Source: Bilabrum cf. latius (taxonomy: Eukaryota). Taken from it: a DNA stretch of 64,000 nt. The notes below the pieces were generated by a model. That model saw nothing but the letters and a program-made list of their open reading frames with translations. It was not told the origin of the DNA and did not search any database. Location: the NCBI GenBank assembly GCA_965178125.1, contig OZ237743.1:1-64000 (forward strand). The letters are read 5' to 3'. Positions within the stretch are counted from its first letter, which is position 1; each line of letters begins with the position of its first letter. The translations under genes were made by a program, and so were the position numbers. Positions 9,225 to 63,296 of the stretch are shown here, piece after piece.

Positions 9225-9231
9225 CCTAAAA

Positions 9232-10143: not shown

Positions 10144-11121
10144 TCAGTTGGTGCCCTTTGCTGGGATGGATGACATCATGGTTATGGACGTGGTTCCGGA
10201 TCCCAGCTTGGCTGCACGGTCATCAGCGTCAGTTAGGATTAGACCGACGGCGAGTGAGACAGAGACTAGCAGAGCCGTTATGATAGACACGATCACCCCA
10301 GTAGCCACAGTGCTGCGGATGCTGGGGCCTTCCTCGTCCGGCTTGGCGGGCGGGGTGTACGTGGATGCCCCCCTGGCTGGCTCGTCTGGGATGTTCTCCT
10401 CCGCAAGCGCATCCTCCAGCTGAGTGGAGATGTCCTCAGCGTATTGCGCCACATCCTTGATGAACTGGATGGTGTCTGCGATTTCATCCGAGTCCACTTC
10501 GAGCTGGGTGAGTACCGTGCGGATGGCCCGGTCGGCGTCGCCCCCGGCGACTGCCTCCGCAATGGGCTGCACTGCCCTAGACAGGTTGACCATGGGGAAT
10601 CCCATAGTGTTTTCCACCGTGGCGGGAATATCTAGCAGCGCGTACTGGTCGATGGTGGGCGCGTCCGGGCGCCGCATAGAGGCAAACACATCTGCGAGAC
10701 CTTTTTCCACGGTTTCGAATGCCCGCAGCACCTTGTCTGCGATCTCCTCGACCTCGGCATCGACCCCTTCGATCTAGAACTGGGTGTAACTCCGGTCGAA
10801 CTGGATGTCCTTGGCTGCGGCTGCAAGCTTGCCAGCCCGCTCGGTGGCCCAGCTCCAGTCGTGCGTTGCGGCAGACTGCACAGTTGCTAGTGCAGATCCC
10901 ACGGCAAAGACTCCCATGGATGCCATTGCCCGCTGGCCGGAGCTCACGACGTATGCCTCCATCGTTGCAACGAGCTAGTCCGGGTCGAACAGGACGTCAA
11001 GCATCTCGGTGGAAATCTTGCTGGTGGGGAAAGCATCAGTCACTGCATGGATACGTACGATAGTTAGCAATACAAAAATGAAAATCGGGTGACTTTTCAA
11101 CGAATTTATTGGCTGTTTCAT
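10144..11121 (-). CDS. Subtelomeric putative type-I membrane/surface protein (~325 aa)
   Basis: Three same-frame ORFs joined at TAG 10975 and 10774. Hydrophobic N-terminus (PIFIFVLLTIVRIHA) and C-terminal TM segment (VATGVIVSIITALLVSVSLAVGLIL). Ends at TGA. Confidence 0.6.
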
Positions 11122-11772
11122 GGCGAGCACATGGCGAGAATGTCTCCTGCTGTAGTACCGGCTCAGAATGCCACATGCCAGAAGAGTATCCAACTAGTTC
11201 GATTAAGGGTGATTCACTTGCTACAACGACTAAGTCAGGCAGCTAGCACCTTTATCACTCAATCTCACCCAGGTTCAAGGCATTTAGAATAGTCAAGAGC
11301 AGTCCGCAGGAAGCGATACCTACGAATACGACCATTGATATCGAAATATGGCCCAGTATCTTGTGTACAGACGGCATTCTTCTACTTTTTGCAGTGTTTA
11401 GTGAGGGCGTGGCTTTTCGCGCGATTCTCTACGATCCTAGATCCTGGTGACATCGGATCTAATCACTAGATCTGGAACCAGGATATGTCTGACCAGGATC
11501 GGATCTTGTGTGGATCTGGAACCAGCGTTCACGGGACATGTAATTGCAGTTTTGATACTTGTACACTAGAGAACCAGTCCCCTTGTTGCAACCATGGTCA
11601 ATGCAGGCGTGCCTGCACCCAGTCTCGGGCTGCCGAGCAATTGCTTCGACTCTCCACCGCACAATCCGGAAATCGACTTCCGCGGCAAAGACTGGGTGGT
11701 AGAACACTCCGATGGAAATTAAGGAGTAAATAACGAAATGATACTAGTCGTGCAACTTTCACCAGCCCGCAA

Positions 11773-14700
11773 TCAGCGAGAGCGTGGCCTCCGGCGAGCG
11801 CCCCTGCCGCGCTTGCCCCTGCCACGCCCGCGCCCCCTGCCTCGCCCACGGCCTGAATACGACCTTGCTTGCGGAGCAGTCGAGTCTGAGGATGCGCCAT
11901 TCATGCCTCCGTTGGGCCTCTCAGACCTCCTCTCGTCGTCATCGTCCTCGTCAATGTCCTCCTCGCCCTCGCCGGCGTCCATCGCGGCTTGCCCCGCCCC
12001 GGCCCCCCCGGCTCGCGCCAGCCCCACCAGGTCAGCCACGGCCTCCCGGGTCGCTGCGTCACGGGTGGAGTCCTCCCCTCCGTCGCCCTCTCCGTCCTCC
12101 ATCTCCGAGTCGGGCCGCCCTCCGCCCCGCCGCTCCCTGCTCCTCGGCCTCCCAGCCCCGGCCCCCACCGCGCCCCTGGCCCGAATCAGCGCCTCCACGC
12201 CTGCGAGCTCGTCGTCCTCCTCGTCGTCGGAACCGCTTCCGAACTGACGGCCACGGCCGCGGCCGACCATGCCAGCCTTGGCCCTGCCATTTCCACCGTC
12301 TTCGTCATCGTCTTCGTCATCGTCCTCGTCATCCTCATCGTCCCCACGCATGGCCGCCCCACGGGAGCGGGTAGTGGGCCGGGTGTTACCGTCCTCGTCT
12401 TCCTCCTCGTCCTCGCGGTCCAGCCGCCCAGACGTCGCGCTCGCCGCATCGCCGGCAGCAGACCCAGACGCACTCGCGGCGTCATCTTCCTATGCCTGTG
12501 CCCCCTCCCCCGGCTCCCCGTCCAGCCCCTCCAGCACCCTGAGCATCTGCTCGGCCTCCTCCTGGCTCACTCCTGCCGCCATCCCAGAGCTGGCACTCTG
12601 CCCGGCAGCGGCGGCCTGCAGGCTCCTGCGGGCCGCCGACAGGAACCGCGCCTCTGCTCTCTGCAGGGCCGCCCGCAGCGACAGGCCCTCCGACTCCATG
12701 GCGTGGGCGTCCCGCAGCAGCGCGGCATTCCGGGCCCGCGTGTCGTTGAGCATCTGCAGGAGCTTGGCGGCCTGCAGCCGGCTGTGCACCAGCCGCTGGG
12801 CCTGGTCCTTGCCGGCCTCCTCAGCCTTGCGCAGCTGGAACTGCAGCCGGCGCACCTCGCCCCTGTTCCGCTGCAGCTCCCGCGCCAGGTGACCCCCGGC
12901 CGCACCGCCCCCGTGCGCCCGCCCAGAAGACCGCGAAGTGCCCAAGCCCCTGCCTGTGCCCGCACCGTCATCACCGGAGCTCCCTTGCCCATGGGCGTCG
13001 CCCCGGGCCTCGGATGAACCCGCGGGCTCAATCTCGCCGCCGAGACCCAGGCCGCTGCCCGCCGCCGAGCCACCCGCGTCAGACGTGAACCTGGAGAGGC
13101 CAACGGAGAAACCTGCCGCGCTGTGCTGCGGGAAGGGCGACCTTGGCTCGGCCCTGGGCGAGGACACGGGGCCCTGCCCCACCTGGTCCCAGCGCCTCTG
13201 CGCCGCGGCCGAGGAGCTGGAGCTGAAAACACCCACGCCCATGCCCTCGTCCTAACCGCTGCCTCGCTCCACTGAGGGGCTGCGGGCCCCTGCGGCAGCC
13301 CCCATTGAGTCCATGGACAGGGCAGAGTAGGACCTACCGCGAGGGGTGCTGTGGGCGGAGGCGTTGGGCCCGAGCTGTGCCGCCACTCCCGCCGACCCCG
13401 CTGCGCCGTCCATCTCCATGGCGAACATGGCAGCTGCAACCCCCGCGTCCCTCGGATCCTCTGCCCCAGCCGCCGAGAGCATGAATCTGCGGATGGAGAT
13501 GGCGTGTCGGGGCCGCCTCGGGTCGGCGAACACCCCCGAGATGAACCCCAGCTCAGGGTGTCCCCTGTGGGGATCCACTCGGAGGGGCACCCCCCTAGGT
13601 ACCATCCCGTTGTCGCCCTGGCCCGCGTCCTGGCCGTCCCGGATGGTCTGCACCACCGAGGGCTGCCACACGGTCCGGAAGACCGGCTGGCGGGGGTGCA
13701 GCACCTGCTGGGAGTCCTTCTCCTGGGGCACTGGCTGCCCATCGTCCGAGGCAGACCCAGAGGAGGCAGACCTGCCCTCGTTGTCAGAGCCATCGTCTTC
13801 CATGGCCTGCTGCTAGCCCTCCTGCCCAGCGGTACGCCGCGAAGACCGCCGGCGGGGGGGCCTCGCTGCTGCTCGGCCACCTTTGCCAGCCCCCCTCTTG
13901 CTCCTGCCCGAGGCCTGGGAGGCGCCATCGTTCGCACCGTCCGACTCCCCCTTTGGGTCACCGTTGGGCCCCTTGAAGCTGACCTTGGACAGGCTGCTGC
14001 CGATGCCCAAAGAGGCAGTCACAGCATCGGAGGCAGCTCGCGCCGCTGCTCCCTCCAACACGGCCTCCTTGGCCGCCTCGCCCGCAGAGAAACCGCCCCA
14101 CAGCCCCGCCGCGATGCTCTGCATCCCATCGGGGTCCATCCCGCGAGGACCAATGTAGTACCCGCCCATACTGCCGCCGATCCCGCCGGCAGCGGCCGTG
14201 GCGAAGCACCTTCGTGCGGGCCGCCCAGTGATGGCCCAGCGCGAGACTACCGCCTGCAGATCCAGGGCGTCGGGGCCGTGGGGTCCCGCACCCGCCTCTC
14301 CTGCGGTCGCCACCAGCTCTAGTTGCTCTGCCGGCATTGTGGCCACGGCGCCCCACCTCAGCTTGACCCGAGTCATGTGCGCCTCTCCAGCGGCCCGCGC
14401 ATCCTCAGCCGCGCCGCCACTCGCGGGGTCTGCCTGCGCGACCACCCAGCCGTCCCCGATGGGGGACACCACGAAGTCTCCAGCGGCCAGGAGGGGCGCC
14501 GCTGGCTGGGTGTCCTGGGAGGAACTGCCCGCTGGGACGTCCGCCGGCGCACCCAGGCTCCCCTGCAGCGCCGCAGCCGCCCTGGCTCCGGGGTCAGCCG
14601 CAAAGCCTCCAGGCACGCCCGAGAACACACCATCACCGAGGGATCGCGCCAGGCGTGCCCGTAGCTGGGCGTTCTGGCGGTAGAGGGCCGCGCTGCGGAG

Positions 14701-16548
14701 CACCTCGGAGGCCTGCAGCCGCTCGCGGCGATCCACGCGCAGGCCCGCCTCGATGGCTCGCCGGAGGGTCACCGAGACGCCCCGCAGGTGCCCAACCGAG
14801 TGAGGCCTCAGGGTCTGCACGCCGCCCTTGCTGTCCTCTCCGTCGTCTCCGTCAGAAGGCGACACAACTCCGGCCGCTGCAGCGTCAAGCACCTCGCGGA
14901 GAGCCGCCCCACCGACCCCCGCGTCTGACGCTGCCCCGGCGAAGATCGCCTGGAGGTCTGCGTCCGCATCCACGTCCGGCTCACTGTCATCGTCATCAGC
15001 ATCGCCGTCGTCTGCCATCTGATCGCTGCCCGCCGCCGCCTTGGGAGCCGTCGTACGCCCGCCCCCTGCCTGCCGATCCGTCCTCCGCTTGGCCGCAGCC
15101 TCCAGGGCGCGCTTGCTCGCCGCCAGGGCCCTCGCCGCCTCTGCTATCGCCCTGCTCGAGGCCTTGCGCCGAGACCGAGCCGTCTGCAGGGCAGCCTCCA
15201 GGGCGCCCACGGCCTGGGCCTGCTCCGCTTCATCCGCCACAAACTGCTGCAGCTGCTGCACGTACTCCCTCCGCAGCAGCAGGTAGGCCTTGTCTCGCTC
15301 CTCACGCCGGCCCTGCACCGCCTCCAGCCGCTGCCTGAGGCTCAGCGTGGCACTCAGAGCGCCCATGCCCGCTGGAACCTCGCCACCGCCTGTGGAGGGC
15401 CCACCAGGCACCGCCCCCGCGGCCCACTCAGTCTGCACCCTCGCCAGCCGTCTTGCCTCGGCGACGGCAGCATCCGCGGCTGGCTCGTCTCCGAGAGCCT
15501 GCGCCGAGGTGCCGTCCGACGAGCCCTTCGACGCCCCCAGCGCGTTGTGCAGCGCGGCACTCGCATCCTCCTGCGCATTCCTCGTCTGTTCCTGTCCCAG
15601 GGCGGCGTCCTCCGCCTCCCAGGCCGCGTCCATGGCTTCGCAGTATGCGTCCGTGCCCGCCACGGAGGGCAGGCTCCCGTGCTGAAGGGCCTTCACCGGG
15701 GGATCCACGCGGCGCACCTTGCTCGGAGGCTCCTGGTCCTCGTCGTTGTCCTCGTCCTCCTCCCCGGTGGAGGAGCCTTGCTCCTATGCGGCACCTCCCT
15801 GCTTGCCCGCGCTCTCCGCCTCTGCCTCGGAGCCTGGCCCGCCGCCGGTGGCACGGGCGGGACCTCCGGGGCCCTCGCTTTGGCCCGCCTGCTTCCAGTC
15901 CAGCGCGTGCCCCAGCCCCCCTGCAGCAAACACCCCGGGCAGGCAGGGCCGCGCACCGCGGGCCGCGCTCGTACAAGCCAGGGCGGCTTGCGCAGCAACG
16001 GCCTGTGCAGCGGCACCCGCTGGCACCCCCACGGTGCGGTCGAGGCCAAGCGCCGCCCCGCCCAAGCCTAGTGGAGCGGCGCCGCCCACAGCGAACCGGT
16101 TCTGCAGCACGCCCCCCGCCCTTACCCGGCCGAGCATGTCCCCGTCCGCTACAATGCGAGCCGTGACCCAACCGGAGAGTGCGCGCGCGGGGGCAGCTAG
16201 CTCCAGTTCCGATGGGAAGCCCGCATCCCCTCCCGAAAAGGCAGCTGCCTCGAGGGCGCGCACCTCCTCGGCGCTCGCCTCCCCCTCCTCTTCCTCCTCA
16301 TCCTCGTCCTCGTCATCGTCCTCGTCGCCATCCTGATCTCCGCCGCCTGGGGCCTAGCTGCCGGCACGTCCGTCCGGAGAATCAGCGTCCTCATCCTCAT
16401 CATCTTCATCGTCCTCGTCCCCGGCCCCGCGACTTGACCGCCCCCCACGGCCGCGCTGGCTCCTGCGCTTCAGGCGTTCGGACTTCTCGCGCATGGCAAC
16501 TTCTGCTTTCCCCGCGTTGATGTTCGCGGCATCCTAGTCCGCAAGTAC
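11773..16548 (-). CDS. Large low-complexity/coiled-coil protein (~1590 aa exon; 5' end unresolved) with a possible SH3/Tudor-like segment
   Basis: Five same-frame ORFs separated only by TAG (16534, 16354, 15784, 13813, 13252, 12490). Ends at TGA. Segment GDFVVSPIGDGWVV...VKLRWGAVATM. Confidence 0.65.
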
Positions 16549-17892
16549 CTGCTATATGTTATAATTGGTGTGGCATCGCGCTGCTGTGCATACTCCCGTC
16601 AGGATTTGGAATCATCTATGAAGCTGTCCGATCTCGTGAACCACGGGTTCATGCCGCAAAAGCAAATCGGGCAGACAATCCAAGCAAATGACTACAGTGA
16701 ACTTAATAAGTGCGTGGCATCGGCTGATCAGAACCGCTTCCGCGTCGCAGCATACTGTGCTCACTTCAGCTACTTGCGGTCGCACGCCTGTGACGCTGAA
16801 GACATCATCGGCAAACTCGTTCGGGCCCAGCGGTGCAAGACCTGCGGCGCATGAAGGGATATAATACGAACTACTCTATTAAAGGTGGGACAATTGTGGC
16901 GCGCTGTCGACTTGTCGCGACCCAGCACGAGCACGGTTCTTTGAAAACGGCAAGTTCCTCCCACTGACCGGATCTCAAGACTCACGCAACTCCCTTTCCT
17001 AAGAATGAGAGCCACAATCAATGCATTCAACAAAAGCAACTCAACAAACACTTATTGCTGGCAAGGGGGAATCGATCGTCATCGGTAAATACAATGATCG
17101 GGTGCATGACTGTGCCTGCTTCCGCGAGCCTCCAGACAGCCGAGCTGGGTCTGCATTCTCATCCTAGTATGGCGATTCGTCTCGTTCTACTCACCGGTGA
17201 GATGCGGAGGCAACCGCAATATTTTGCCATGATGAGAAAGATCTTTTACGGGGGGCAGCTTCGGAACCACGGGTGCAGCGGGCCCATCGTCCCCGTGTCT
17301 TCGACTGCGTATTGAACCAAAAAGAGGTTTGTTGACGCGTCAAACAGCAGAATAACTTGTAATAATAAAAATTACAGGCTGCACGGAACGTTTGCCGGCA
17401 AGGCGGGCTCCTGCGCCAAGCGCCAAGCTGCCTCATAGACCACCGCACGCCGACCGAGCACAGTGGCAACACGTGCACTTGCTCTGTACAACACCGGTGC
17501 AGGCGGTGTACAACCCAAGTCAGTTCTTGTATTTGATATCTAACCACGTTCGCCTCACCGTTTGCGCGTGTTCATGCCTGAAACGATTCTTCAGGCGGTT
17601 GCACTTCGCGGATTCTCTTGATTTGCCGGTGCTTTCAAAACCAGTGCAAAGCTTATAGACTGCCAAGCGACCCTTCGCAACGGATTAAAAATGAGTACCA
17701 AAATAAACTCTACGGTTCAACCGCCCGGGCAAGTGCTGATAGGCTTGTCGGAACGGCGCTGATGCCCAAAACGGGGGTTCGATTGAGGCCAATGTGCGGT
17801 TGTAACCAATGATCGGATCAACGAAGTCAACCGAACGTTCCAAAGCTAGGTTGTGGCATTCGCACACGTTTAGTCAGAAAAATACGGATCAT

Positions 17893-19680
17893 TCACCTTT
17901 CGATTATTCTCAAGCTTCCAGTTACCACCTTGTTATCGAGAATGGCTCCATCCGGCAGGTCTATTCGGCTGCCGGAGTGCGCGACCACGATCACAGTCCC
18001 TCGCAGCTTCACGCCCCTGCCCATGTTCACGTTGCCGCTCACCGTCAGGTGGTCCAACTCCAGCATGTCGGGCAGGCCCGCCTCCCCCCCTTTGAATCTC
18101 TGGTAGTAGTCCCTGAGCATGGCGAACTCGGGTCCCAGCTGCACCACCGGGATGGAGGCCACGTCCCTCGAGGGATTCCGCACCAGCGACCCGTGCTTCA
18201 CCGCGAACACGTTGCTCTGCACCGTCAGCAGATCGCTCGTCGTCTTCACGGGCAGGAACCTGTCCCTAGACACCTCAATCCCCACCGCGGCAGGCAGCGC
18301 CTCCACGATGCTCCCCGCGGAGGTCTCGATCTCGAGCAGAGCGCGGCCACCCATCTCCCGCTGGTTCACCAGCACGGGCATGCGGATGCGGCCGGAGGCA
18401 GAGGCCTCGCGAGCCACCAGTTCTTCCACCGCCGCGCAACTGACCCACAGGTTGTTCGTGTTGAAGGCAGCGAACGTCTTCAAAGACCGGAACTCGGCGT
18501 CGTGCTCGGCCGGCACCTGCGCGGGCTCCACCAGCCGGGGCCTCCCATCGTACTCGATGAGGGTTCCGCCAGTGACGTCTGCTCTGGTCTTGGGCGTGAC
18601 CTCCATGCAGCAGGGCAGGTCCCCGTTGACCATGTGGTACAGTATCTCCAGAGAGGCGGTGGCCCCCAGGTTGTCAACGTTGCTGATGAAGATGTACTCT
18701 TTGCCCGCCCGGCGGAGTGCACGCAGCATCCCGCTCTTTGCAAGGGCCCGGTACACGTCTCCGTGCCCCGGCGGGTACCACGCCTGGGCCGCTGCCGGGC
18801 TGAACGGCTCCACAGGGACCGGCACCAGCGTGTCCCTGTCCACGCGCGGGTAGCAGGACTGCGTGAAGCAGTGGATCGTGACGTGGTGCTCGGCGTACCT
18901 CCGGACCACGCGAACAGTCTCTTCGTGCGTGTGGAACGAGTTCATGAGCACGAGAGGCACATCCACTCCGTACATTGTGTTTAAATACTCCACCTGCCGG
19001 ACGGCGAGATCCAAGAACGTGAGACCGCTCCTGACCTCGATCGCACCCTTCGAGCCGCGACAGCCCATCCGAGTTCCTAGACCCCCATTCAACTTTACAA
19101 TAGCTAGCTTTTGGAGAAGCTCATGTCTTAGCTTCGTGTCAGCCGGGCACGCCTCCAAGTCGCCGATGCTGGTCACGAGTTTGGCCGATGCTGGCCGGAC
19201 CTTTGACCAATCCATCTTTGGTTTTCGACGCTTTTGTTCTGCATACTACCCAAGCAAGTCGAGAAACTCTCTAGCGCTGTCAGGATCCAGGATGGATCGC
19301 ACACTCTGCGATTGACAGCAAAGAAAGACGAACACCGAACCGATCTGGAGCTTCGAGGCGAAGAAATTCAGCAGCACTAGAATAATCCTTGATCAACCAA
19401 CACTCACATCGTTTATTGTAGATCGGGCACCGGCTGGAATCCCACCCCGTGTCTGGGTGAATTCGTGCAAGGAAGCTGATTCCGCCTCGCGCGGGGCACC
19501 TATGCCGCCAAACTCCTCTTCACCAGCCCCACCAGCTGCAGCAGAGCTACCATTATCCCTGGAGATGCTGTCGCTTGCTTTTGCCCCTCCTAAGCCAGCG
19601 CCATCATCGACACTAGGTTCGAGCGCTCCATCCGGAGCTCCCGCTCCATCCGCCTCGTAGTCGCCGGCTACCGCAGCCAT
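17893..19680 (-). CDS. UGP1: UTP--glucose-1-phosphate uridylyltransferase
   Basis: Motifs KLNGGLGTRMGC, LVLMNSF, WYPPGHGD, SNVDNLGA, FNTNNLW, RFLPVK. Intron 19407-19306; in-frame TAG at 19246; TGA stop. Confidence 0.95.
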
Positions 19681-19819
19681 CGCAGCCCTCCAGTACTTAA
19701 TAAATTGCGGAGCGTGCCAGGCGCAGTTTATTGGCTTTCCATCCGAACAGGCAACCTCACGGCCCATCGAACCACGACGAACCCCTAACCGAACGTGAGA
19801 ATCCGGCGGACACACTCCA

Positions 19820-21268
19820 ATGAATGTATGGGAGCGCAGCCGATCGGTCGTTACAGCCAGCATTGTTTTCTTGTCTGGGGTCGGCGCTGGCATTGCAATA
19901 GGCTTGTTGCTGCGGGCCAGATCAGAGAAACGGAGCTCGTCGTCAAAGAGGTCAACTGCAATTCTGCAGGGATGGGTCGATGCAGTCGGTAATACGCCCC
20001 TAGTTCGATTGAAAAGCATATCAGAAGAAACAGGTTGCGAAGTTCTAGCCAAGATGGAGTTTCTGAACCCCGGTGGTACGCCGAAGGATCGAGTTGCGGC
20101 CAGCATTGTGAAAGAAGCCGTGCGCTCGGGCCAACTGAAGCGGGGCGGAACCGTTGTGGAAGGCACTAGCGGCTCAACCGGAATTGCTCTAGCTATGGCT
20201 GCTCGGGCATATGGCTGCAAGTGCGAAGTAGTGCTCCCGGACGACTAGTCCATGGAGAAAGAAATTGCGCTGAAGCGGCTCGGGGCAAAGGTGCACCGCG
20301 TGAAGTGCTGCTCGATCGTGAGCGATAACCACTACGTCAACGTGGCGAGGCGACTGGGCTCGCGACCTGGCTGCATTTTTGGCAACCAGTTCGAGACGCT
20401 GGCGAACTATCGAGCCCACCTGGCAACGACCGGGCCGGAGATCTGGCGCCAGTGTGGTGGCCGGCTGGACGCTTTTGTGATGGGAGCAGGGACAGGTGGC
20501 ACGATTGCTGGAGTGAGCAGAGCACTGGCCGATTTGGGAGTTGAGAGAACGCCCCGCCGCGAGCGATCCCCGCGAGACGATGTCTCCGTGGGGGGGGCGG
20601 AACCTTGCCGTGGATCTGCTGTGCCGGACACTGACAGCGCGATCAAGCGGTCATTAGAATCTACTCGCGTGGACGAGCTCCGCGAGCGCGGGGACAAGGT
20701 CCGCTGGGTTGGTCGCAGCGGTGCCTGGGTGCTGCTGGCAGACCCCCCTGGGTCCTCGCTGCTGCACAAGGTCAAGCACGGAGTGTGCTACGCCCCCCAG
20801 CAGGCAGAGCGGGCGGTGCGGAGACACAGGTACGACAGCATCGTGGAAGGTGTGGGCCTGGATCGACTCACGCGTAATTTCCGGCAGGCTCTGGTGGACG
20901 ATGGGTGCCGTGTCAGCGACGGAGAGACCACGCTCATGGCCCGCCGGCTGCTGCGTGAGGAGGGCCTCTTCGTGGGGTCCTCTGCTGCCATGAACGTGGC
21001 GGCGGCACGCAGGCTTGCGCTGGCGATGGGGCCCGGGCACAGGATTGTGACTGTGCTGTGCGATTCGGGGTCTCGTCACGTGAGTCGGTTCTGGAGCGAG
21101 AGCTGGATGAGGGAGCACGGCTTTGGGGAGCAGCTGGATGCAGCCCAGGCAGCCGAAGAAGGATGCGGGGAGCAGACGCAAGGGAAGGATTTGTAGCAAG
21201 GAGACAGTTCGCGCGCAGGTGATGGCACAACTGGGGAGTCCCACATCGAGGCGCACGACGGGCAGTGA
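19820..21268 (+). CDS. Cysteine synthase-like PLP enzyme with N-terminal membrane anchor (MCY1/Cys12-like)
   Basis: Motifs VGNTPLVRL, KMEFLNPGGTPKDRVA, EGTSGSTGIALA, GAGTGGTIAG, EGLFVGSS, LCDSGSRH. In-frame TAG at 20246 (PDD*SMEK) and at 21194; TGA stop. Confidence 0.93.
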
Positions 21269-24400: not shown

Positions 24401-24716
24401 GGATGAACATTCTGGTATTCCAAGTCCTGAAGACTGCACCCTGCGAGGCTCGTTGCAGGGGCAAAAGGTTGGAATCAACGAGGAGTGCAGAGAAGCCGAT
24501 TCAATTGAACGAGCCAGGTGCATCGATTGTACCAAATTGTAGAGAAAAGGCACCCACCTGCTTCCGTAGGGTCCCGAACTTAACGACAATTTCATTATGC
24601 CAGGGTGGCATCCGCGACGAGGTTCGCTTGGGGAGGCCGCTGCTAGAGCTACTGCTTATCCCGCTGTCTCCTGCTCCCCGTAATGGAGGCACATATGATC
24701 CCGTGGCAGTGGTCAT
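21432..24716 (-). CDS. CaMK-group Ser/Thr kinase flanked by two PH domains
   Basis: Kinase motifs VGRGGYSIV, HRDLKPEN, ADLGFA, CGTPSYVAPE. PH motifs VKFGTLRKQ|GAVFRTWNTRMF and KTGLLVKRGQIVHSWRERSF. Intron 24557-24441; TAG at 24306, 21819, 21468, 21444; TGA stop. Confidence 0.9.
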
Positions 24717-47805: not shown

Positions 47806-48073
47806 GTTGCACAAAAAGTGTCAAGCTGCTTGGTGGACAGCTGCAAGCTAGCAAGATCTCAGATTTGAAGAATTTTTAATGCACTGACGCAGTAAAAATG
47901 TGATTATAACCGATATACAGCTAAAAATACGGCACAATACCTTGAGTGGGATGAGCTAAGACCGATTTGTCGCTACGGAGGACCGCACTACTTAATTGTA
48001 GCGAGCCAATTCGTATTATTCATCACTCTTTGCTCGGTCAAAATAGTATCCAAGAACGACCTATTTGTCCGCA

Positions 48074-53700: not shown

Positions 53701-54573
53701 AAGGCCAGTCTGTCTGACGATGCTTCGCATTGCAACGATACTCTGCAGCGCGACGTACAGCCCATCGCGGGCCCGTCGGGAAGGGAGCTCAACAGCAGGG
53801 AGCTGCGCCACTTGCTGGGTGAGCTTACCAAGGGAGTGGTGGGAACTGGACCAGTGCTCGAGCGGGAGCCGAATTTTTGGGAAAGTAAGACCAACGGCAA
53901 GGGCAAGGGCAAGGGCCTAAACCGCGGTGGCCCCGCTGGCAGCAGCTTCCGCTCCTCCCGATCGAAGGGGTCCTTCCGGGAGATCGGGCTGTCCAAGCCG
54001 GTGAGGACCGGGCCCATGCGTGATAGGAGCAGGGAGAGGGGGAGGGCAGGGGGAGCGGCCAGGAAGGGGAGGCAGCGCAAGAGGGTGCAGCGCACTGTAG
54101 CAGACAACCGTGGGTTGCAACCGCTAGACTCTGGCCTGGCGGGCCGCCCAGCCACAGCTCTGGACAGGCTGGCGGCCGGTTTGATAGAAGTTTCCCGAGG
54201 GTCCATTCTTCCTGAAGTGGGGATGGGTCCGAAAAGTGGGGCGGGAGCAGCCGCGGTCCATCGAGCTGCCAGTCGAGAAGGGACAGCCGGAAGGGCGGGG
54301 CGTGGCCGCGGCCGCGTGCACGTGTACGAAGCGGGCCACTCCGGAGATGTGAAGAAGCAGCCGGGGGGGGCATGGGAAAGTAACACCTCTCCTGCGTCAG
54401 GCGCGCAGCCCTCGGTCGGGGCGGGCGCCAGAGGCCCGCACGCCTCCCTGCCCACTAGCACAATGTCCCAGCTGTCGCCGGGGGGCACCTCGAAGGGGGC
54501 CTCAAAGGACAGGTCGGAGATGTCCGTGGCCAGGGTGCGTAGGATGCATAGGAGGGCCGCAAGGCGGGTGTAA
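50759..54573 (+). CDS. Calmodulin-like 4-EF-hand protein with a very long disordered C-terminal tail
   Basis: EF loops FDR|DGDGAID, DQDGNGSVEFGEF, FDK|DGGGTISVQEL, DFDRSGEVDLEEF. Introns 50888-51043 and 51287-51381. The last exon is open through 6 TAG to TAA. Confidence 0.75.
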
Positions 54574-54643: not shown

Positions 54644-54704
54644 CTTGTTTTTCGTGCTGTCGCGAGTCACCTCGCCGTAACTTCCGGTTTTGCTTGGCGC
54701 GGGC

Positions 54705-55760
54705 ATGCGCAGGCTGTTTCATCGCATTTTTCCAAGCGTCGAAATGAACGTCGTGTCGACCGGAACCGAATTCTTAAACGAATGGATTTATCCTTCATCC
54801 GGCAGTTCGTGGGGAGACTCGCCGCTCTGGTGGGCTCTGTGGGGGGACTTGGCTGCCACCGTTGGTGTCTTTTTGATAAGCGTCCTCGTCAAGAACTCCA
54901 GCGTGTATGATCCGTACTGGAGCGTTGCCCCTGTCATCATTGCATTCTATTGGACATTCGAAGACCCGAATGCCAGCGTGTCGGATGGCTGGGTGCCCCA
55001 GCTGCAGGCTAGGCAGTGGCTCGTTCTCATTTTGATCAACGCGTGGGGCCACCGGCTCACTTGGAGTTGGTGGAAGCGTCTGGGGTATGATATGTCAAAG
55101 AGAATCATATCGGGCAAGCCTGCTGGTCACGAGGATTGGCGATACGTGCTGATTCGGCAGGGCCTGACTGGCACCACCGCTCATCGCGTCTCTCTGCTCA
55201 AGGAGCTCACGTACTGGATCGTGGGGTCTCTCGGAGCCATCCATATGTTTCCAACTATCATGGTATTCTTTGGCATGGTGCCTGCATACCTCGTGCTGGG
55301 CCGCCCCGCGGTTGACACTATCTCCGCAAACCTTGGCTGGCTGGACGCAGTGGCAATCGTGCTGGGAATCGAGGCGGTCTGGCTCGAGCTCGCTGCAGAC
55401 CTACAGATGGACGCTTTCCTCGCTAGTGCTAGTGCTAAAGAAGGCAAGGCTAAACAAGTGTGCCGCAGGGGGTTGTGGGCAGTGTCAAGGCACCCGAACT
55501 ACCTGGGTGAGAACCTCATGTGGCTCTCCCTGGGGCTCTTCGCCCTGGCTGCGCATGGAACGCGAGCTCTGCTGCCTGCCCTGCTCGGCTTCGTGGGCAT
55601 CATGGGGATCTTCGTGGGGTTCTCCATCCCTCAGCTGGAAGCGAGGCAGCGGGAGAGGCGCGGGGCAGCCTACGAGCAGTACCAGCGGGAGGTGGGTGTC
55701 TTCCTGCCCGCCTCGACGTCGCTGTACTGGAGGCTGCTGCCGGGGGTGGCGGTGGAGTGA
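54705..55760 (+). CDS. DUF1295 / steroid 5-alpha-reductase-like membrane protein
   Basis: Motifs NSSVYDPYWS, HEDWRY, ADLQM, GLWAVSRHPNYLGE, YEQYQREV. TGA stop. Confidence 0.9.
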   Translation: MRRLFHRIFPSVEMNVVSTGTEFLNEWIYPSSGSSWGDSPLWWALWGDLAATVGVFLISVLVKNSSVYDPYWSVAPVIIAFYWTFEDPNASVSDGWVPQLQARQWLVLILINAWGHRLTWSWWKRLGYDMSKRIISGKPAGHEDWRYVLIRQGLTGTTAHRVSLLKELTYWIVGSLGAIHMFPTIMVFFGMVPAYLVLGRPAVDTISANLGWLDAVAIVLGIEAVWLELAADLQMDAFLASASAKEGKAKQVCRRGLWAVSRHPNYLGENLMWLSLGLFALAAHGTRALLPALLGFVGIMGIFVGFSIPQLEARQRERRGAAYEQYQREVGVFLPASTSLYWRLLPGVAVE

Positions 55761-55911: not shown

Positions 55912-58900
55912 TCATTCAGGGCCATCCACGGATGCACCCTCCGCCAGAGCCAGGTCTCTGAGCCCCGCTTCCTCCGAGCTGCAGCACCACGCACTCAATG
56001 CCTTCTCCTCAGCCTCCTCCTCCCTCCTACCTGTGGTGCCCAAGTCCTCGACGACCTGCACCTTCTCAAGTCGCACGCACCAGTTGCCTCTCTCGTACCA
56101 TGACTCCCGCACAACAAGCGCCCAGCCCGCTCCATCCTCGCCCATGCGCCCACTCTCACCCGAAGCACGATCAGCGCCCCCGGCGTCCTTTCCCTCGCCT
56201 GCACCATCCGCACCCTCACCCGCCTTACCGCGCCCCAGTCGCCCAACCTGCTCGTTCACGCCGGTCACGAGATCCTCTAGTTCACCGCGCACAAACAAAT
56301 GGCAGAACCGCTGCAGCACCAGCGACCCTGCACCCCCATCCTCTTGTGCCCTGGCCTCCCGCAGGGCAGCTGCCTGCCGCGCAGCTGCCACTGGATCATC
56401 CTCTTTCCCATCGACCTTGGCCTTACTGGCACCAGACGCAGGTCTGCCCCGCCCAATAGGCGAGCGTTCGGCTGAGGCAGTTGAATCACCAGCGCCAGCA
56501 CCAGCACCAGCACCAGCACCAGCACCAGCACCAGCACCAGCACCAGCACCAGCACCAGCACCAGCGCCAGCACCAGCACCAGAACCAGCACCAGCACCAG
56601 CACCAGCACCAGTACCAGCACCAGCACCGCTGCTAAGCCCAGCATCCTCAACCCCATCCCCAGCTTGGGCCAGATTTGCGCCTTCCCTAGCTGCCTACGC
56701 AGCGAGCGCAAGGTCCGGCGGCAGCTTCCAGGGAACAAACGTGTCCTTCCCCTGCTTCGAACCGGCCTACTACCCCGCACCCGCCCCAGCCTCCGCGAAG
56801 CATCCCAGTTTCTCAAACCGCCTGTACACCGCGCTGCCCTTTGGCTGCTCCAGTGCCCACGCCTGCACCAGCGCCGTCCCGCCGACCCGCAAGATGCGGC
56901 CTATCTCGAACATGAGTCGCACGCGCCTTGCCCTCGTGCTGATGTGGTGCAGCACCGCGATGGACATGGCTGCGTCCGCCGTGCCTCCCCTCCACGGCAG
57001 CACCAGCGCGTCGGCCACCCCCACCTGTGCCCGCAGCCCCGCCTCCTCTCCAGCCTTGCCAGCCAGCTCCACAAGCCCAGCGCTCCTGTCAAATCCAGCG
57101 CACACTAGCTGCGGAAACCCTGGTTTGCCTCCCTCTGCCCCACCCGCGCGCTCCTCCTTCGCCAGCGCCTGCGCGCTCAGGATGTACCTCCCGTTGCCGC
57201 ACCCAGCGTCCACCACCAGCGACAGCGGCCGGAGCCGCCGCATGAAATCTAGCACTCGCGGCCACCCGCCCAGCGCATTCCCGCCTCTCCGCTTGCCGCT
57301 GCCCTCTCCGCCTGCCTTGCTGTTGCCCTTGCCCTACCCCCGAGCGGCTTGCGAACCCGCCCTGCCCGCCGACCTGGTCTCGGAAAAGTGCGGGGCCACG
57401 GCGTCGTAGAAGGCATGCACCCCCACCCGCTCGCTCTCGGGGGTGCGCAGCACGGCAGCTCCCGCCTCGCTGCCTGCCTCTGCACCTGCACCTGCAACTA
57501 CTCCCGCGCCGGCACCAGCCTCGTCCTGCAGCGAGGGAGAGAACAGCCGGTCCGGGGCCTTGGTGGCTCCTCCAGCCCTCCCGTCCAGCTCGTCCAGTGC
57601 TGCCGCCCATGCCACCTGCCGCAGAGTCAGGCTGATCCGCCTGCTTCGAGGCACCAGCGAGGCGCCCACCCTATCCCTCTCACGGGGCGCGATGGCGTGC
57701 GTCCACTCGTACCTGGAGGGGCCCGTCATCACCAGCAAAGAGCGGCGGGGCAGCACCACGGGGCGCTTGCCGGCGGGATCTGCGGCGGGTGGGGCCAGCT
57801 CCATGACCGTGTCTGATAGCAGGGACAGGGAACACAAGAAAGGGCCAAAGGCGCCGGGGGTATCTGTGTGCGCACTGATGCCCTGACCAGGGAGGTACTC
57901 GTTCGCTGTCGCCTAGTCGAAGTGCCAACCCCCAGAGCCAGGGCCAGCGGCACTTGAAGCAGCAGCAATGGGTGTAGGTGCACCTGCAACGGGCGATGCA
58001 TCCGCTGTGTGTGCCAGCGCTGCCTCATTGGCACCGTGCATCGCTTTCGCCCCCGCGGCAGCATCCCGAGCAAGCGCTGCCTGCCGCTCTACTTGCTCAC
58101 TGGACTGCGCCTCCCCCCACGTGGCGGCAGTGCTGGGGGTGCAGGCACTAGGGCTGGCGCTAGTAGCATGGTCCCACGTGGGTACCAGCCAGGGATCCAC
58201 GGGAGCATTGAGCTGGCCAGCACGAGGAGCTGACGTCTTGCCTCCCTCTCCCTCTTCCTCTTCCCCGCTTGCAGCAGATGCACGAAGTGCCCGCGCCGCT
58301 CCATACGCCTCGCAAGCTGCCAGTGCCCTGCATGCTGCCTCCGCCCGGCGACACACGGACTAAAGCAGAGAAGGCATGGGCCTCGTGCAGCGGTCCCCAG
58401 GCAGGAGCGCTCTCCCCGCTCGGGCCCGCACATCCCCTGCCGCGATGCCCCTGCTCACGTAGTCGAACCGAGCCCCGAAGTGGCACACCCGCCTAGACAT
58501 CGTGGAGTCCCACATGCCCCCACCATCCCCGCCATCCCCGCCCTCCCCTCCATCCATGGACCTCGCCAGCGCCTGCTCCTCCTCCTCGCTCACGAACCCT
58601 CGCAACAGGAAGAGCCCAGGCACTCCCCGAACACGCACCTCAGGACCAAGCGCGTCCCGGAGAGGGGACAGCAGAGCCGGCAGGCTCTCGCCGAAACTGG
58701 GCAGTGCAGCGGCAACTCGCTTGGCGGACAGCCGAAACACGCTGAGCCTGGACCGGGGCCGGGGGTCGCCGGCAGAAGGCACCCCATCCGATGATGCGCC
58801 GCCCGCAGCTGCAGATGCAGCTACAGAGAGGGTGCGACCAGCTGATTTGTCTCTCGAGTGAGGGACATCCCAGTGCCCCGCAAGGCTCCAATCCATTCGG

Positions 58901-59469
58901 CACAGCTCCTCCAAATCGTCGGAAGCCTCCGACCCACGACACTCCCCAGTGGCCGCAGCCGGCGGCTCCGCCCCGTGTTTCTGCAGCAATCGGGTGAAAC
59001 CTACCGCCGCCCTGAGAGTTTTGAATGTGACAAATGCCTCTCGACGCGACGCGATGGCGCGGACTCCAGCCACACAGTCGGTGTTTCTGGCATCAAGTCG
59101 CGCCAGCTTGGTGGTGAGGATGTCTGAAATCACTGCCGCGGCCTTCCCGTCCGCCACCGCAGCTTCCTCCTCTGATGCGATATTTGCAGGTGGTAGTGTG
59201 TATCCGTTGGGACTTTGGTACGCCGAACGCTTTCTGGGTTTCGTCCATCGAACACATACGTGAAACCCAATGCTGCACCGCTCTGTTCCCGTGCACCCAG
59301 TGAATCTATGAAACGGCTGACCCAAGCAAACATCTGCTGGGCCGCTCCAGGATCGGAAAAACCCAAATCTAGCCGTATCTTGGGCGTCTGGCGGTGCGCA
59401 CCCCCTTGCGTACTAAATTGGTACGTCTTTGCCGCTCTCCAATCCGGTCTTTGCATCCACATCATGCAT
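55912..59469 (-). CDS. ALKBH8: ALKBH8-like tRNA wobble-uridine modifying enzyme (2OG-Fe(II) oxygenase + Trm9 methyltransferase)
   Basis: Oxygenase motifs PGLFLLRGFVSEEEE, RRVCHFG, FD*ATANEYLPGQGISAHTDT, RYEWTHAI, RISLTLR. MTase motifs YDAVAPHFSETR, DAGCGNGRY, IAVLHH, VWALEQ-like QAWALEQ, DTFVPW, RFCHLF, GNWCV. Seven in-frame TAG; TGA stop. Confidence 0.92.
56487..56628. repeat. (CCAGCA)n hexamer repeat encoding poly(Gly-Ala) inside ALKBH8
   Basis: Read directly; about 23 imperfect units. Confidence 0.9.
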
Positions 59470-59722
59470 TGTGGCGTAATGCTCAACATAAGCTCCGCGC
59501 GACGCTGCATCACAACTCATTTAGAACACTTGTACTCTTCAGATGCGAATCTACGGTACGCGTAGGAAATTCTGCTGCGTCGTCTAGGTAAGCCTAGATT
59601 GATTCCTGTGGAAGGCTCCGGATCCCAGATAGCGCCGCGCAAAAAAATGTTCCGTATAATGCATGCACAGGATAAATCAGAAGATCCTTCCAATAAACAA
59701 ACAGCAGCACACGAATTGGAGC

Positions 59723-60580
59723 ATGTCTGGCTCAAATATCGCTCCTGTGTACGCACCATCCCGGGATGATGAACCTAGAACGGGTGTAAACTGCTGCGGG
59801 GTGCAGTATCCGTCCACAGCAATTGCATTTTTCTCGTTCAACACTCTTTGGCTGGTGTTTGGCATCGCAATGGCTGCACTGTCTGCGTGGGCCTACGAAA
59901 GGCACGATGCTATCGCGAAAGAAATTCCTGAGGCTGGGATCGGGCCGGTTCTGTCGGCTGGTATTCTCCTCATCCTCGTGAGCATCCTGGGCTTTATCGG
60001 ATAGCGATTCTTTGCATCCCCATCCGGAAGATACATTTTGGGGGCGTATGCATTTCTTCTATCAGTGGTGGTTATTCTGGAAATCGCGTCGGCGGTGCTC
60101 ATGTTCGTGGTAATCGGGCGACTGAACAATTACGATCAAGATAAGGAGATCCGTGACAAATCTATCAAGTCTTTCGTAGACAGCGCCTACACGCATTGCT
60201 GCGGCGGTGATAGGCATGTACCATCCCCGCATGATGGCTAGTGCTGGATCCCGGAATCGATCGGCATCGTGACGGCTAAAAATTGCAGCGACCCGGACGA
60301 GTTTGACCTTGCCCTCATTGACTGGATGGTCAAGCAGCTCAACCCCGTCGCCATTGTGACGCTCGTGGTCGCGATCGTGCAGCTCGTCGCAGTGGTGCTC
60401 GGCTGTGTGGCGGTGCGGCTGGGCTAGGCCAAGCAGCTGCAGAGACAAGACGACAGCTTCCGCACGCAGGGGGGCAACTCCGCGGCCTACGGGCAGGGCG
60501 TGTACGGGGTGGAGAGTGGGGGCTCGTTCATGCAGTCCATCGGGGGGGACGGACGGGCCGGGGAACAAGGGTTCTACTGA
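59723..60580 (+). CDS. Tetraspanin-family protein (285 aa)
   Basis: Four TM segments and a CCG motif (THCCGG) with further Cys in the large loop. TAG at 60002, 60239, 60425; TGA stop. Confidence 0.8.
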
Positions 60581-60875: not shown

Positions 60876-62498
60876 TTAGCCCTGGTCGTCATCCGCCTCC
60901 CCTCCCCCAGTGATGCTGACCCCAGCAGCCGAAAGAATGCTCATGGTGGTGGACACCACAAAGAGCACGCTGCCCACGCACAGCAGCACCACGGACCCGA
61001 TGGCCTCCCACGAGTCGCAGGCCCCCCTCGAGTCGAAGGGGTCGTTACCCAGCATCAGGTGCGTTGCTGCCGGCAGCACGAACGCGATGAACACGGCCGA
61101 GAAGGACCCCGTGATCTCCAGCACGTTCCCCAAGTCATCCACCGCGAGTGCAATCCCCAGACTCACCACCCAGAGCAGGGCAGTGGCCACCCAGTGCTCC
61201 CACCCGCCAATGGCCTCCTTCCTGCTCTCCTCATGCCGGTCATCTATCTCCCCCCGCGCAACCAGATCGAACACAGGGGCCCCCTCGCTCTTCCACCTCG
61301 AGTCCGCCAGCACGTCCCCGATGACCGAGTGCAGGATGGATCGGCACACCATCAGCTCGGAGGGGTACGTCATGGTCATGTTGAGCACGAGGCCCAGCCG
61401 GGCCCCCACGATGACCATGTCCGTGCCCCCCACATCTGGGTCCTGGTCGTCGTCCTGCAGTCCGTGTCCCGCCAGCTTGTCGAAGGACAAGAAGATGTCC
61501 GCCTCGGTCTCCTCCTTGAAGGCAAGGTACCCGCAGGCCGCCATGGCTAGAGACACCACGGCAGAGATCCCCACCGAGGCGCGGGACACGGCCGAGAACG
61601 TGTCGATGCTCCTGTCCTGCTCCCGCAGCGAATCGTACACGAGGAAGACCTGGTGGTGGCACACGAACGCGAATGCGATGGTTCCGATGGCAGAGGCGAA
61701 GCCCTCGTGCGGGAGCAGTAGCACCCACGTCTGCGTGTGCTGGCTGTCCACGCGAGAAGCGGCCCTGCCTGGCCCGCGGGCCACCACCGCCACGACCATG
61801 AGCATCACGGCCGCAAGCGAGGCCATGCTGAACCTCTCGAGAGAAGAGAAGCTCCGCATGCAGCAGATGGGCAGGATCACCAGGCCGGCTGACAGGGTCA
61901 GCAGCAGTCGCGGATCCAGGGCGGCACCAGCGCGGTCCGTCGCAGCGTCTCCCGCGAACGCGGTCAGCACGGGTGCGAGCGTGTCTTTCACGATGACGAG
62001 GTATCCGATCATGGCCCCGAACGCGAATAGGAACTGGAACACCACCACGAGCCAGAACCCGGGGGCACCGAAGGCCCGCTGCACCAGCTGCTCGTAGGTC
62101 GAGCAGCCGTGCGCCACGCCCAGTCGCATGAGCAACCTCACCGTGTGGTCTGTCAGGAACGCAACGATGAGCACCAGCAAAATACCCGGTAAGAACCCGG
62201 CCTGGTTCAGAGCGTACGGCAGCCCGATGATCCCTGCTCCCAAAATCGAATTGATGAAGTTTGCGGAGGCTCCGATCGGGCTCGAGCCTTCTCCTTCACT
62301 TTCTCCGGATCCATCCCCGACAATGCCCCAAGCAGCCAGCAGGCTGTCCTGTGGTGGTTGCACCTTCGATTCCTGCTTCTCGTCTCCGGGGCGGCCTGGT
62401 TGGCCCGACCCGTACGACCCCGTCGTTTGTGACGGAGCAGCACTACCATCTCTCGAGTTGCTGCCAAGCAAGCTCTTGTCTGGCCTATCGTCAGCCAT
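60876..62498 (-). CDS. AAAP-family amino acid transporter (SLC38A11-like)
   Basis: Motifs NFINSILGAGIIGLPYAL, FAFVCHH, TMTYP, GSFSAVFIAFVLPA. Intact ORF; TAA stop. Confidence 0.93.
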   Translation of the reverse strand: MADDRPDKSLLGSNSRDGSAAPSQTTGSYGSGQPGRPGDEKQESKVQPPQDSLLAAWGIVGDGSGESEGEGSSPIGASANFINSILGAGIIGLPYALNQAGFLPGILLVLIVAFLTDHTVRLLMRLGVAHGCSTYEQLVQRAFGAPGFWLVVVFQFLFAFGAMIGYLVIVKDTLAPVLTAFAGDAATDRAGAALDPRLLLTLSAGLVILPICCMRSFSSLERFSMASLAAVMLMVVAVVARGPGRAASRVDSQHTQTWVLLLPHEGFASAIGTIAFAFVCHHQVFLVYDSLREQDRSIDTFSAVSRASVGISAVVSLAMAACGYLAFKEETEADIFLSFDKLAGHGLQDDDQDPDVGGTDMVIVGARLGLVLNMTMTYPSELMVCRSILHSVIGDVLADSRWKSEGAPVFDLVARGEIDDRHEESRKEAIGGWEHWVATALLWVVSLGIALAVDDLGNVLEITGSFSAVFIAFVLPAATHLMLGNDPFDSRGACDSWEAIGSVVLLCVGSVLFVVSTTMSILSAAGVSITGGGEADDDQG

Positions 62499-62828
62499 GT
62501 TCAGTTTCTGCGCTGCAAGTTGCAGCCTGAACCGCCAGGATCGACGAGTAAGTTGGCCTCTTTGTTCAGCCCAAAAGTCTGCTTAGGGTCAAAAGCCACG
62601 AGCCAATACCAGCCTGGAGTATTAAATATAGCTCTTGGTTCGATTGTAGGCAATGGCCGGCACCTGAAGCTCAAATGATCCTTCCTCAAGCGAATATGGA
62701 ACGTTCTTTTTTCAGAAGCGAACCTTTTCCTTTTGGTCGGCATTACAAGTCGACATTGTCTTCTATCATCGATGTGCTTAACCGTCTGAACATACCATAT
62801 CAAATTGAGCTAGATGTAGCTTGATATA

Positions 62829-63296
62829 ATGGACTTGGAGGCGCGCTTGCGAGGCCGACCGCGCGTACGGAATTCCAAGACCTACGCCGAACGCGAGCCC
62901 AAACTGTCAGACTAGGACGAACTGGATACGTCACCAGACCTAGTGCATTTGGCAAGTCTTACTAGCTTCCCCTCGCTGGTATCGGGAGCACGACTGCACA
63001 AGCATCCCTCGTAGCAAGCTGGACATGGTGAAGCGCATCAAGCGGGCACAAGCATTGCAGACGGCGCTGGCTCAGCGAATGATGATCTCGCTGGCTATCT
63101 TGCAGGATCCATGGCAACGAGGGCTCTTGATGGTTCTTCAAAGGCCCCTGCAACTGTTGAGGCTTTCCACGACAGCGCACCGGAGGAATGTGCCCTTGCC
63201 GTGCCTTTAGCCGCAGCAGCGCTGGCACGCTCATTGAACTTGGACGATCTTGAGGATGTTGCGGGCGCACTACTCAAGGAACTGGACGGGCACTGA
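62829..63296 (+). CDS. Hypothetical protein (~155 aa)
   Basis: ATG at 62829 is in frame with ORF 63111..63296 through two TAG; TGA stop. Confidence 0.35.

Follow-up and report, generated by a model that had tools for sequence, protein, structure and literature searches.

A nuclear genome of probable stramenopile affinity in which UAG appears to be translated as glutamine while UAA and UGA terminate

Nuclear genetic codes that separate UAG from UAA are few according to PMC11687900, and each new one tests the coupling of the two codons through eRF1. Outside the ciliates, the codes of this kind named in that source are those of a rhizarian (exLh, UAG as leucine), Iotanema spirale (glutamine) and Scotinosphaera (serine), and within the ciliates it names one species with UAA as lysine and UAG as glutamate, Protocruzia tuzeti (glutamine), and the phyllopharyngeans (glutamine twice, and leucine). 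The same source places the joint reading of UAR as glutamine (NCBI table 6) in many ciliates, hexamitin diplomonads, ulvophycean algae, Streblomastix and Amoeboaphelidium. For Iotanema spirale, the parts of Panek et al. 2017 (PMC5304391) that bear on the code give 204 UAG codons in 126 genes, with UAG making up ~8% of the glutamine codons and eRF1 carrying T32G, and argue that a tRNA whose anticodon is CUA is able to read UAG without reading UAA. Here we examine a stretch of 64,000 nucleotides (contig OZ237743.1, positions 1 to 64,000, assembly GCA_965178125.1; hereafter the window), in whose genes TAG recurs in frame. In this nuclear genome UAG very probably has a sense meaning, glutamine being the likeliest, and UAA and UGA are retained as terminators, which is a code of the NCBI table 15 type. 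The code type is already known; the lineage bearing it appears to be new. We read UAG as sense because homology runs through the TAG codons, because spliced RNA keeps them unedited, and because the full-length genes hold no in-frame TAA or TGA, and we read it as glutamine because of the residues found at the same sites in close relatives, the reciprocal exchange of apparent stops and CAG codons, and the resulting gap in likelihood.

The evidence comes from this single 64-kb window, which is gene-dense eukaryotic nuclear DNA with a guanine plus cytosine (GC) content of 62% overall and 0.54-0.72 per 4 kb. Open reading frames (ORFs) of at least 1000 amino acids number seven (8,807 amino acids) when TAG is read through, none under the standard code, none with TAA as sense and three (3,314 amino acids) with TGA as sense. 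Since TGA outnumbers the other stop triplets (1519 TGA, 1065 TAG and 608 TAA on both strands), we judged the contrast in ORF length between the TAG and TGA readings insufficient alone, and used homology and frame-specific counts instead.

By the coding-type GC pattern at the three codon positions we picked 23 gene-like ORFs, 20 of which contain in-frame TAG, as does the spliced gene SEM1, so that the figure of about 20 such genes in the first-pass annotation of this DNA holds. Counted from the first ATG, the 23 ORFs contain 82 TAG, 498 CAG and 113 CAA codons, with at least one of these TAGs (codon 32 of the LRR gene) being intronic according to RNA contigs; UAG thus makes up ~0.5% of codons and ~12% of glutamine codons, a rate that the three TAG-free genes fit. 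After trimming 21 ORFs to their cores by removing the first 60 and last 40 codons, we count 67 TAG, 0 TGA and 0 TAA among 12,712 codons in the coding frame, and the off-frames hold 157 TAG, 422 TGA and 51 TAA among 25,382 codons. With 67 in-frame against 157 off-frame occurrences (log-odds -0.16), TAG is not depleted in the coding frame. A frameshift is required in none of the verified gene ORFs, and the earlier statement that the genes are free of frameshifts and of in-frame TAA and TGA is borne out.

The counts also bear on UAA and UGA. If UAA were glutamine as well, the CAA:CAG ratio of 113:498 would lead us to expect ~15 in-frame TAA codons in the cores, and none is seen. The ORFs terminate at TGA in 16 cases and at TAA in 6, with one running off the window edge; the first-pass annotation had noted that every gene model ends in TAA or TGA, which is true, but it follows from the way ORFs are defined and is not independent evidence. 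Homology supplies an independent view in UGPase, ARPC4 and SEM1, which end at TGA, TAA and TAA, respectively, 1-10 codons from the end of the homologue alignments. Given the absence of in-frame TAA and the TAA ends of ARPC4 and SEM1 at the homologous C-terminus, the window does not follow the code in which UAR is glutamine. That UAA and UGA remain terminators, as the annotation proposed, is supported within this small sample. The genes and ORFs with in-frame TAG are as follows.

10144-11202, minus strand: ORF with a coding-type pattern of GC at codon positions 1, 2 and 3; 3 TAG.

11773-16611, minus strand: ORF of 1612 codons with the same type of pattern; 7 TAG.

17893-19392, minus strand: UGPase (PF01704, 4e-150, residues 42-464); 1 TAG, codon 49 (19246-19248); ends in TGA.

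19799-21268, plus strand: cysteine synthase (CysS; PALP, 6e-66); TAG at codons 150 (20246-20248) and 466 (21194-21196); ends in TGA.

21432-24500, minus strand: protein kinase and PH gene (Pkinase 8e-71, PH 7e-20); 4 TAG, codons 65, 894, 1011 and 1019; ends in TGA.

24931-27711, minus strand: PA/PDZ-domain protein (PA 6e-10, PDZ 1e-6); 5 TAG; ends in TGA.

28378-30027, plus strand: TB2/DP1/HVA22-family protein (PF03134, 1.3e-10); 3 TAG.

30087-31287, minus strand: last exon of an LRR protein; 3 TAG (30708-30710, 31110-31112, 31260-31262); introns at 31288-31387 and 31748-31833.

32057-33546, minus strand: exon of PRIM2, the DNA primase large subunit (PF04104, 6e-76); 2 TAG (33311-33313, 33473-33475); intron at 33547-33649; ends in TAA.

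33715-38406, plus strand: ORF of 1563 codons; 13 TAG; ends in TAA.

38464-39042, minus strand: ARPC4 (PF05856, 6e-67; PDB 1k8k_F, 2e-61); 1 TAG (38614-38616); TAA 3 codons past the end of the human alignment.

39239-41131, plus strand: NHA2/SLC9B2-like Na+/H+ antiporter (NHA; PDB 7b4l, 6.5e-57); 3 TAG, none within the aligned parts; ends in TGA.

41353-44514, plus strand: low-complexity ORF of 1053 codons; 17 TAG; ends in TGA.

48074-48488, plus strand: SEM1/DSS1, exons 48074-48230 and 48322-48488 (PF05160, 1.3e-9); 1 TAG (48426-48428); ends in TAA.

49207-50391, plus strand: exon of a RhaT-like transporter (PF06379, 7e-15); 1 TAG (49291-49293); intron at 49095-49206; ends in TGA.

51340-54573, plus strand: EF-hand protein with a long disordered tail (EF-hand_7, 1.7e-9); 6 TAG; ends in TAA.

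55912-59520, minus strand: ALKBH8-like fusion of an AlkB 2OG-Fe(II) oxygenase and a methyltransferase (PF13532, 4e-16; Methyltransf_11, 6e-9; PDB 3thp, 4e-19); 7 TAG, of which 57913-57915 falls within the oxygenase core; ends in TGA.

59660-60580, plus strand: tetraspanin (PF00335, 5e-16); 3 TAG, codons 115, 194 and 256; ends in TGA.

The identities given by the first-pass annotation to PRIM2, ARPC4, SEM1, UGPase, ALKBH8 and cysteine synthase are confirmed by Pfam matches, and that of NHA, which has no Pfam match at E 0.1, was settled through the SLC9B2 structures by PDB sequence search. No Pfam family was found for the ORFs at 10144-11202, 11773-16611 and 33715-38406. Eight TAG codons lie inside Pfam match ranges (two in tetraspanin and one each in UGPase, CysS, ARPC4, ALKBH8, RhaT and SEM1), and PDB alignments span a TAG in CysS, ARPC4, PRIM2, ALKBH8 and SEM1. 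In SEM1 the human alignment crosses the TAG, where the human residue is glutamate, and continues for a further 10 residues. The PDB alignments of UGPase reach residue 498 of 499, which places its TGA stop at the conserved C-terminus.

Whether these codons are translated at all can be weighed with the RNA. The runs compared over 30000-49999 were X4, which is DNA from another sample, and X5, X6 and X10. Contigs of the latter three skip eight introns with GT..AG or, for minus-strand genes, CT..AC ends (31288-31387, 31748-31833, 33547-33649, 46216-46359, 46543-46753, 47573-47709, 48231-48321 and 49095-49206; 86-211 nucleotides, all canonical at the joints that the RNA contigs skip), and these runs therefore derive from spliced RNA. 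Among the pieces listed, RNA covers at least 23 of the 41 TAG codons in the nine gene models of this region, namely 3 of 3 in the LRR gene, 2 of 2 in PRIM2, the single codons of ARPC4, SEM1 and RhaT, and at least 15 of 17 in the ORF at 41353-44514; the remaining 18 lie outside the listed pieces (13 in the ORF at 33715-38406, 3 in NHA and 2 in the ORF at 41353-44514). Spliced contigs from X5 and X10 span all three TAGs of the LRR gene, an X5 contig covers PRIM2 from 32120 to 33546 with no other letter, X6 and X10 contigs cover the TAG of ARPC4 and show the intron of SEM1, and the TAG of RhaT is covered by X5 and X6. Two X5 contigs (41277-42463 and 42441-44363), intron-free and with no other letters, account for the 41353-44514 ORF. 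Only two letter differences (41030 and 47139) are listed for the whole 20 kb, and neither falls on a TAG.

It is scarcely credible, then, that the TAGs go untranslated, whether as marks of pseudogenes, as mistakes in the reads or the assembly, as sites edited in the RNA or as parts of very short introns. We found nothing that speaks for this explanation, though a priori C-to-T errors could make TAG from CAG. The X4 DNA and the three RNA-derived runs show no difference at the covered TAGs, the introns are spliced out of the contigs and the TAGs remain, the frame count of 67 TAG against 0 TGA and TAA comes with no frameshifts, and relatives show a reciprocal TAG/CAG pattern described below. For the covered sites editing, micro-introns and assembly error are excluded, and on the combined grounds of RNA retention, frame counts and relatives we reject the pseudogene, editing and assembly-error readings. 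The check for unedited UAG in spliced mRNA that the first-pass annotation had proposed came out, at the covered sites, in favor of a sense codon.

The identity of the residue is best approached through proteins of close relatives. At codon 150 of CysS both P0121 (94% identical) and P0123 (73%) have glutamine. The ORF at 33715-38406 aligns with P0241 (87% identity) and P0242 (86%), which are two ORF calls of one relative, both tied to one 6,314-base contig, and which give glutamine at TAG 986 and TAG 1537 and glutamate at TAG 424. Five comparisons at four TAG sites, with relatives 73-94% identical, thus give glutamine four times and glutamate once. The reverse situation is also observed, in which the relative's ORF call stops where the window has a glutamine codon: P0242 ends right before CAG 593 and P0241 right before CAG 1544 of the ORF at 33715-38406, and the ARPC4 relative P0322 (82%) ends right before window codon 99, which is CAG. 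A fourth call, P0121, ends right before TAG 466 of CysS. The proteins of these relatives contain 2-5% glutamine, and by our arithmetic three ends on glutamine would arise by chance ~5 times in 100,000. The end of a contig might be mistaken for that of an ORF, which is unlikely for P0242 provided that P0241 follows it downstream on one contig. The sequences suggest that TAG and CAG are interchanging between close relatives.

In six pairwise alignments with such relatives, glutamine of the window pairs with glutamine at 53 of 62 positions, and glutamate of the window pairs with glutamine at 0 of 113. Using these empirical pair frequencies on the five observations, the log-likelihood at TAG is -5.06 for glutamine, -15.99 for lysine, -16.97 for histidine, -17.83 for glutamate, -22.5 for serine and -29.78 for leucine, a gap between glutamine and the next residue of >10 natural-log units. 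The first-pass annotation's choice of glutamine as the most likely residue, along with its reading of UAG as sense, is upheld by homology across TAG and by these comparisons.

Distant homologues give a more mixed picture. The CysS column at the TAG has glutamine in 66, alanine in 31, methionine in 10, valine in 9 and threonine in 4 of 120 homologues, with glutamine in the closest PDB chains (5i7w and 5jis), and human ALKBH8 (3thp) has glutamine at the position of the oxygenase-core TAG. By eye in the translation, two TAGs of the LRR protein sit where sister repeats show the Q of a C-P-Q-L motif. Several points count against glutamine or limit the case for it. In the UGPase column arginine (70 of 120 homologues) and lysine (12) outnumber glutamine (10), PRIM2 codon 103 corresponds to leucine or isoleucine in the PDB chains, the SEM1 site is glutamate in human, the ARPC4 column is histidine in 122 of 134 non-gap homologues and glutamine in 2, and glutamate stands at TAG 424 of the ORF at 33715-38406 even in the near relative. 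Close relatives cover only four TAG sites in one 64-kb window, and they were compared as proteins, so that the codons ending their ORFs are inferred to be TAG. A scan of metagenome contigs with the CysS protein returned only six distant loci (L001-L006, 37-43% identity) and no close relative's DNA. The ARPC4 codon (38614-38616) is the one strongly conserved column at odds with glutamine, and the motif is locally diverged here.

These columns are what would favor a sense UAG for another residue, with glutamate the most plausible and histidine, arginine, lysine or leucine behind it, and PMC11687900 does name codes elsewhere in which UAR is glutamate or UAG is leucine or serine. We nevertheless regard another residue as very unlikely. 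The near-relative likelihoods favor glutamine over glutamate, histidine, lysine and leucine alike; the relatives' ORF ends fall three times out of three on a window CAG and never on GAG, though glutamate codons are commoner than glutamine codons in the gene-like ORFs (964 against 611); and the BLOSUM62 scores summed over all 13 observations, near and distant, are 43 for glutamine, 23 for glutamate and 11 for arginine. Glutamine is also a common exchange partner of glutamate, histidine, arginine and lysine. Given that UAG is sense, we would assign it to glutamine with high, if approximate, confidence from these alignments.

A further question is whether UAG ever terminates. Within 25 codons of an ORF end we count six TAGs (one in CysS, two in the kinase, one in NHA and two in the ORF at 41353-44514), compared with ~3 expected at 0.52% per codon, which weighs against a purely sense UAG, although by our arithmetic the excess is not significant (Poisson p ~0.08). 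We scored the tails by codon usage, with the score trained with the tested gene left out; 25-codon windows of coding sequence average 0.20 and stretches after stops -0.03. Over the 50 codons after TAG 256 of the tetraspanin gene the score is 0.30 in frame 0 against -0.19 and -0.26 in the other frames, with a GC of 0.86 at third codon positions, and after the last TAG the frame-0 score is 0.19 in CysS and 0.11 in the ORF at 33715-38406. Also adverse are two tails that are not clearly coding, those of the kinase (-0.08 over 11 codons) and of the ORF at 41353-44514 (0.05). The coding signal persists past three of the five near-terminal TAGs tested.

A dual meaning, with UAG read as glutamine inside genes and as a terminator in some contexts near the 3' end, is accordingly worth stating. 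Ambiguous stop/sense codes exist in Condylostoma, in karyorelict ciliates and, for UAA, in Blastocrithidia. Besides the near-terminal excess and the noncoding score of the kinase tail that follows TAG 1011, the first triplet of stop type past the end of homology in CysS and tetraspanin is TAG, and the call for the relative P0121 ends right before CysS TAG 466. We consider a dual meaning improbable, the more so as the excess falls short of significance and the frame-0 signal runs beyond the near-terminal TAGs of tetraspanin, CysS and the ORF at 33715-38406. Where homologue alignments come to within 10 codons of a gene's end, as in UGPase, ARPC4 and SEM1, the stop is TGA or TAA in all three, and no positive case of termination at UAG was found among the window genes examined, though UAG may terminate in the kinase gene or in the ORF at 41353-44514. 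A poly(A)-proximity mechanism is known from ciliates, and for such a mechanism the 3' untranslated region (UTR) of the PTB-like gene of the window, at least 106 nucleotides in an RNA contig, is long.

Taking UAG as a glutamine codon throughout, the machinery may be proposed by analogy with the cited cases. UAG would be read by a tRNA-Gln(CUA) that differs from the CUG isoacceptor at a single base, and an altered eRF1 would have weakened recognition of the G in UAG. New TAG codons may then accumulate mainly where CAG undergoes a C-to-T change, TGA being the main stop of this genome. A tRNA scan of the 64-kb window returned 0 genes, and the eRF1 gene does not lie within it.

Compared with the described systems, the window most resembles Iotanema spirale, in which, as presented in the Panek et al. 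account, UAG alone has moved to glutamine, UAA and UGA terminate, and UAG is a minority glutamine codon (~8% there, ~12% here). The two differ in that Iotanema belongs to the Metamonada (Fornicata) whereas the present organism groups with stramenopiles, in that UAA is the main stop in Iotanema whereas TGA ends 16 of 22 ORFs here, and in that the evidence for Iotanema is transcriptome-wide and includes a known eRF1, in place of one window. The first-pass annotation had rightly cited this precedent, though its list was incomplete, since PMC11687900 also names Protocruzia tuzeti and two phyllopharyngean lineages as having moved UAG alone to glutamine. These ciliates share with the window a UAG decoupled from UAA and assigned to glutamine, which has thus occurred in several independent lineages. 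They differ in that the phyllopharyngean genomes in the dataset of PMC11687900 have at most 53.6% GC, one of them 28%, compared with 62% in the window. Ciliates as a group are set apart in that the window carries a (CCCTAA)n array and its proteins group with stramenopiles. Ciliate telomeres differ from the (CCCTAA)n type. The table 6 codes share the change from stop to glutamine, and may well have taken the same route through a mutated tRNA-Gln, but UAA is not sense in the window, where 6 ORFs and SEM1 end in TAA and none of the ~15 in-frame TAA codons expected is present. The codes of exLh and Scotinosphaera, as named in PMC11687900, are likewise non-ciliate nuclear codes in which UAG alone has changed, though to a different residue, and in the near-relative test leucine and serine score -29.8 and -22.5 against -5.1 for glutamine.

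As to the bearer of the code, UGPase and CysS find their best named matches, at 45-57% identity, among stramenopiles, the oomycetes included. The tree of UGPase places the window sequence in a clade with oomycetes and ochrophytes (100% by the Shimodaira-Hasegawa-like approximate likelihood ratio test, SH-aLRT), outside both and beside one EukProt transcriptome, and that of CysS joins it to Cafeteria and two other sequences at a support of 92/96, which is below the strict threshold. CysS contains an insertion of ~70-100 residues, at about residues 245-345 (20540-20830), which appears lineage-specific and is kept in both close relatives, and the CysS proteins of Cafeteria (P0164) and of P0126 have an insertion at the same place; the feature is thus common to the window and Cafeteria. 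On these two single-gene trees, we provisionally place the bearer as a heterotrophic-type stramenopile outside the oomycetes and ochrophytes, probably Bigyra-like.

The code also seems to be shared by at least two or three relatives represented in public data. We lean, by a modest margin of belief, toward an as yet undescribed heterotrophic stramenopile clade, possibly near the bicosoecids and comprising the window genome and at least two or three relatives at ~94%, 86% and 73% protein identity, as the holder of the first non-standard nuclear code in stramenopiles, with an independent origin of UAG-only reassignment to glutamine in a GC-rich genome with TGA as its main stop. A bolder version would be that UAG is still partly a terminator and that the reassignment is caught in progress. 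Full-text literature searches, which reached few subscription journals, turned up no stramenopile with a reported change of its nuclear code, though such a report may exist. PMC12480563 and PMC13768787, which came up in them, deal with a plastid change of UGA to tryptophan and with Blastocrithidia and have no bearing here. The first-pass annotation's suggestion of a rare and possibly undescribed independent origin is plausible on this footing, with the grouping with stramenopiles in its favor.

If true, this adds to the UAG-only codes a new major lineage for which an assembled genome, transcripts of expressed genes and a number of close relatives are available, so that the gain of tRNA(CUA), the change in eRF1 and the spread of TAG from CAG could be traced by comparison. 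There are practical consequences as well. A public standard-code call (P0269), 100% identical to window ARPC4, has 102 amino acids and stops exactly at the TAG, and publicly available proteins of this organism are cut short through use of the wrong code. Because standard-code calling truncates proteins in this way, annotation and phylogenomics of this genome and its relatives need table 15. RNA-derived runs filed under two other organism labels carry the sequence of 30000-49999 with 0-1 letter different, and small shares of it occur in runs labelled algae metagenome and protist metagenome; the organism may be a resident of samples or cultures that bear another name.

The remaining features of the window are three genes free of TAG and two ORFs outside the 10144-63296 span covered by the first-pass annotation.

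1-3834, minus strand: ORF with 2 in-frame TAG, running left of a telomere-type array.

4520-6211, plus strand: ORF with 2 in-frame TAG.

44689-46215, minus strand: exon of a PTB-like RRM protein; TAG-free; introns from RNA contigs.

54681-55760, plus strand: DUF1295 gene; TAG-free.

60876-62582, minus strand: amino-acid transporter; TAG-free.

The telomere-type array is a perfect ACCCTA/CCCTAA repeat of 245.5 copies at 7754-9226, internal to the window, preceded by a 155-bp tandem repeat (7.9 copies, 6464-7694, 99% matches) and followed by a 48-bp repeat (3.3 copies, 9232-9394). The C-rich strand is oriented as at the left chromosome end of the DNA on its right; a scaffold join may thus have added the DNA on its left, or else the array may be an interstitial telomere. 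Genes flanking it on either side contain in-frame TAG. The ALKBH8-like gene is lengthened to 1202 codons by long Gly-Ala dipeptide runs (56485-56640) and other low-complexity inserts between its oxygenase and methyltransferase domains. A gene with three introns at 46130-47820 on the minus strand (46216-46359, 46543-46753 and 47573-47709) reads in one listed frame as a repeat protein rich in glycine, tyrosine, proline and glutamine. Finally, two pairs of convergent genes, CysS with the kinase and the ORF at 41353-44514 with the PTB-like gene, end ~160-175 bp apart, a spacing that leaves room only for short or overlapping 3' UTRs.

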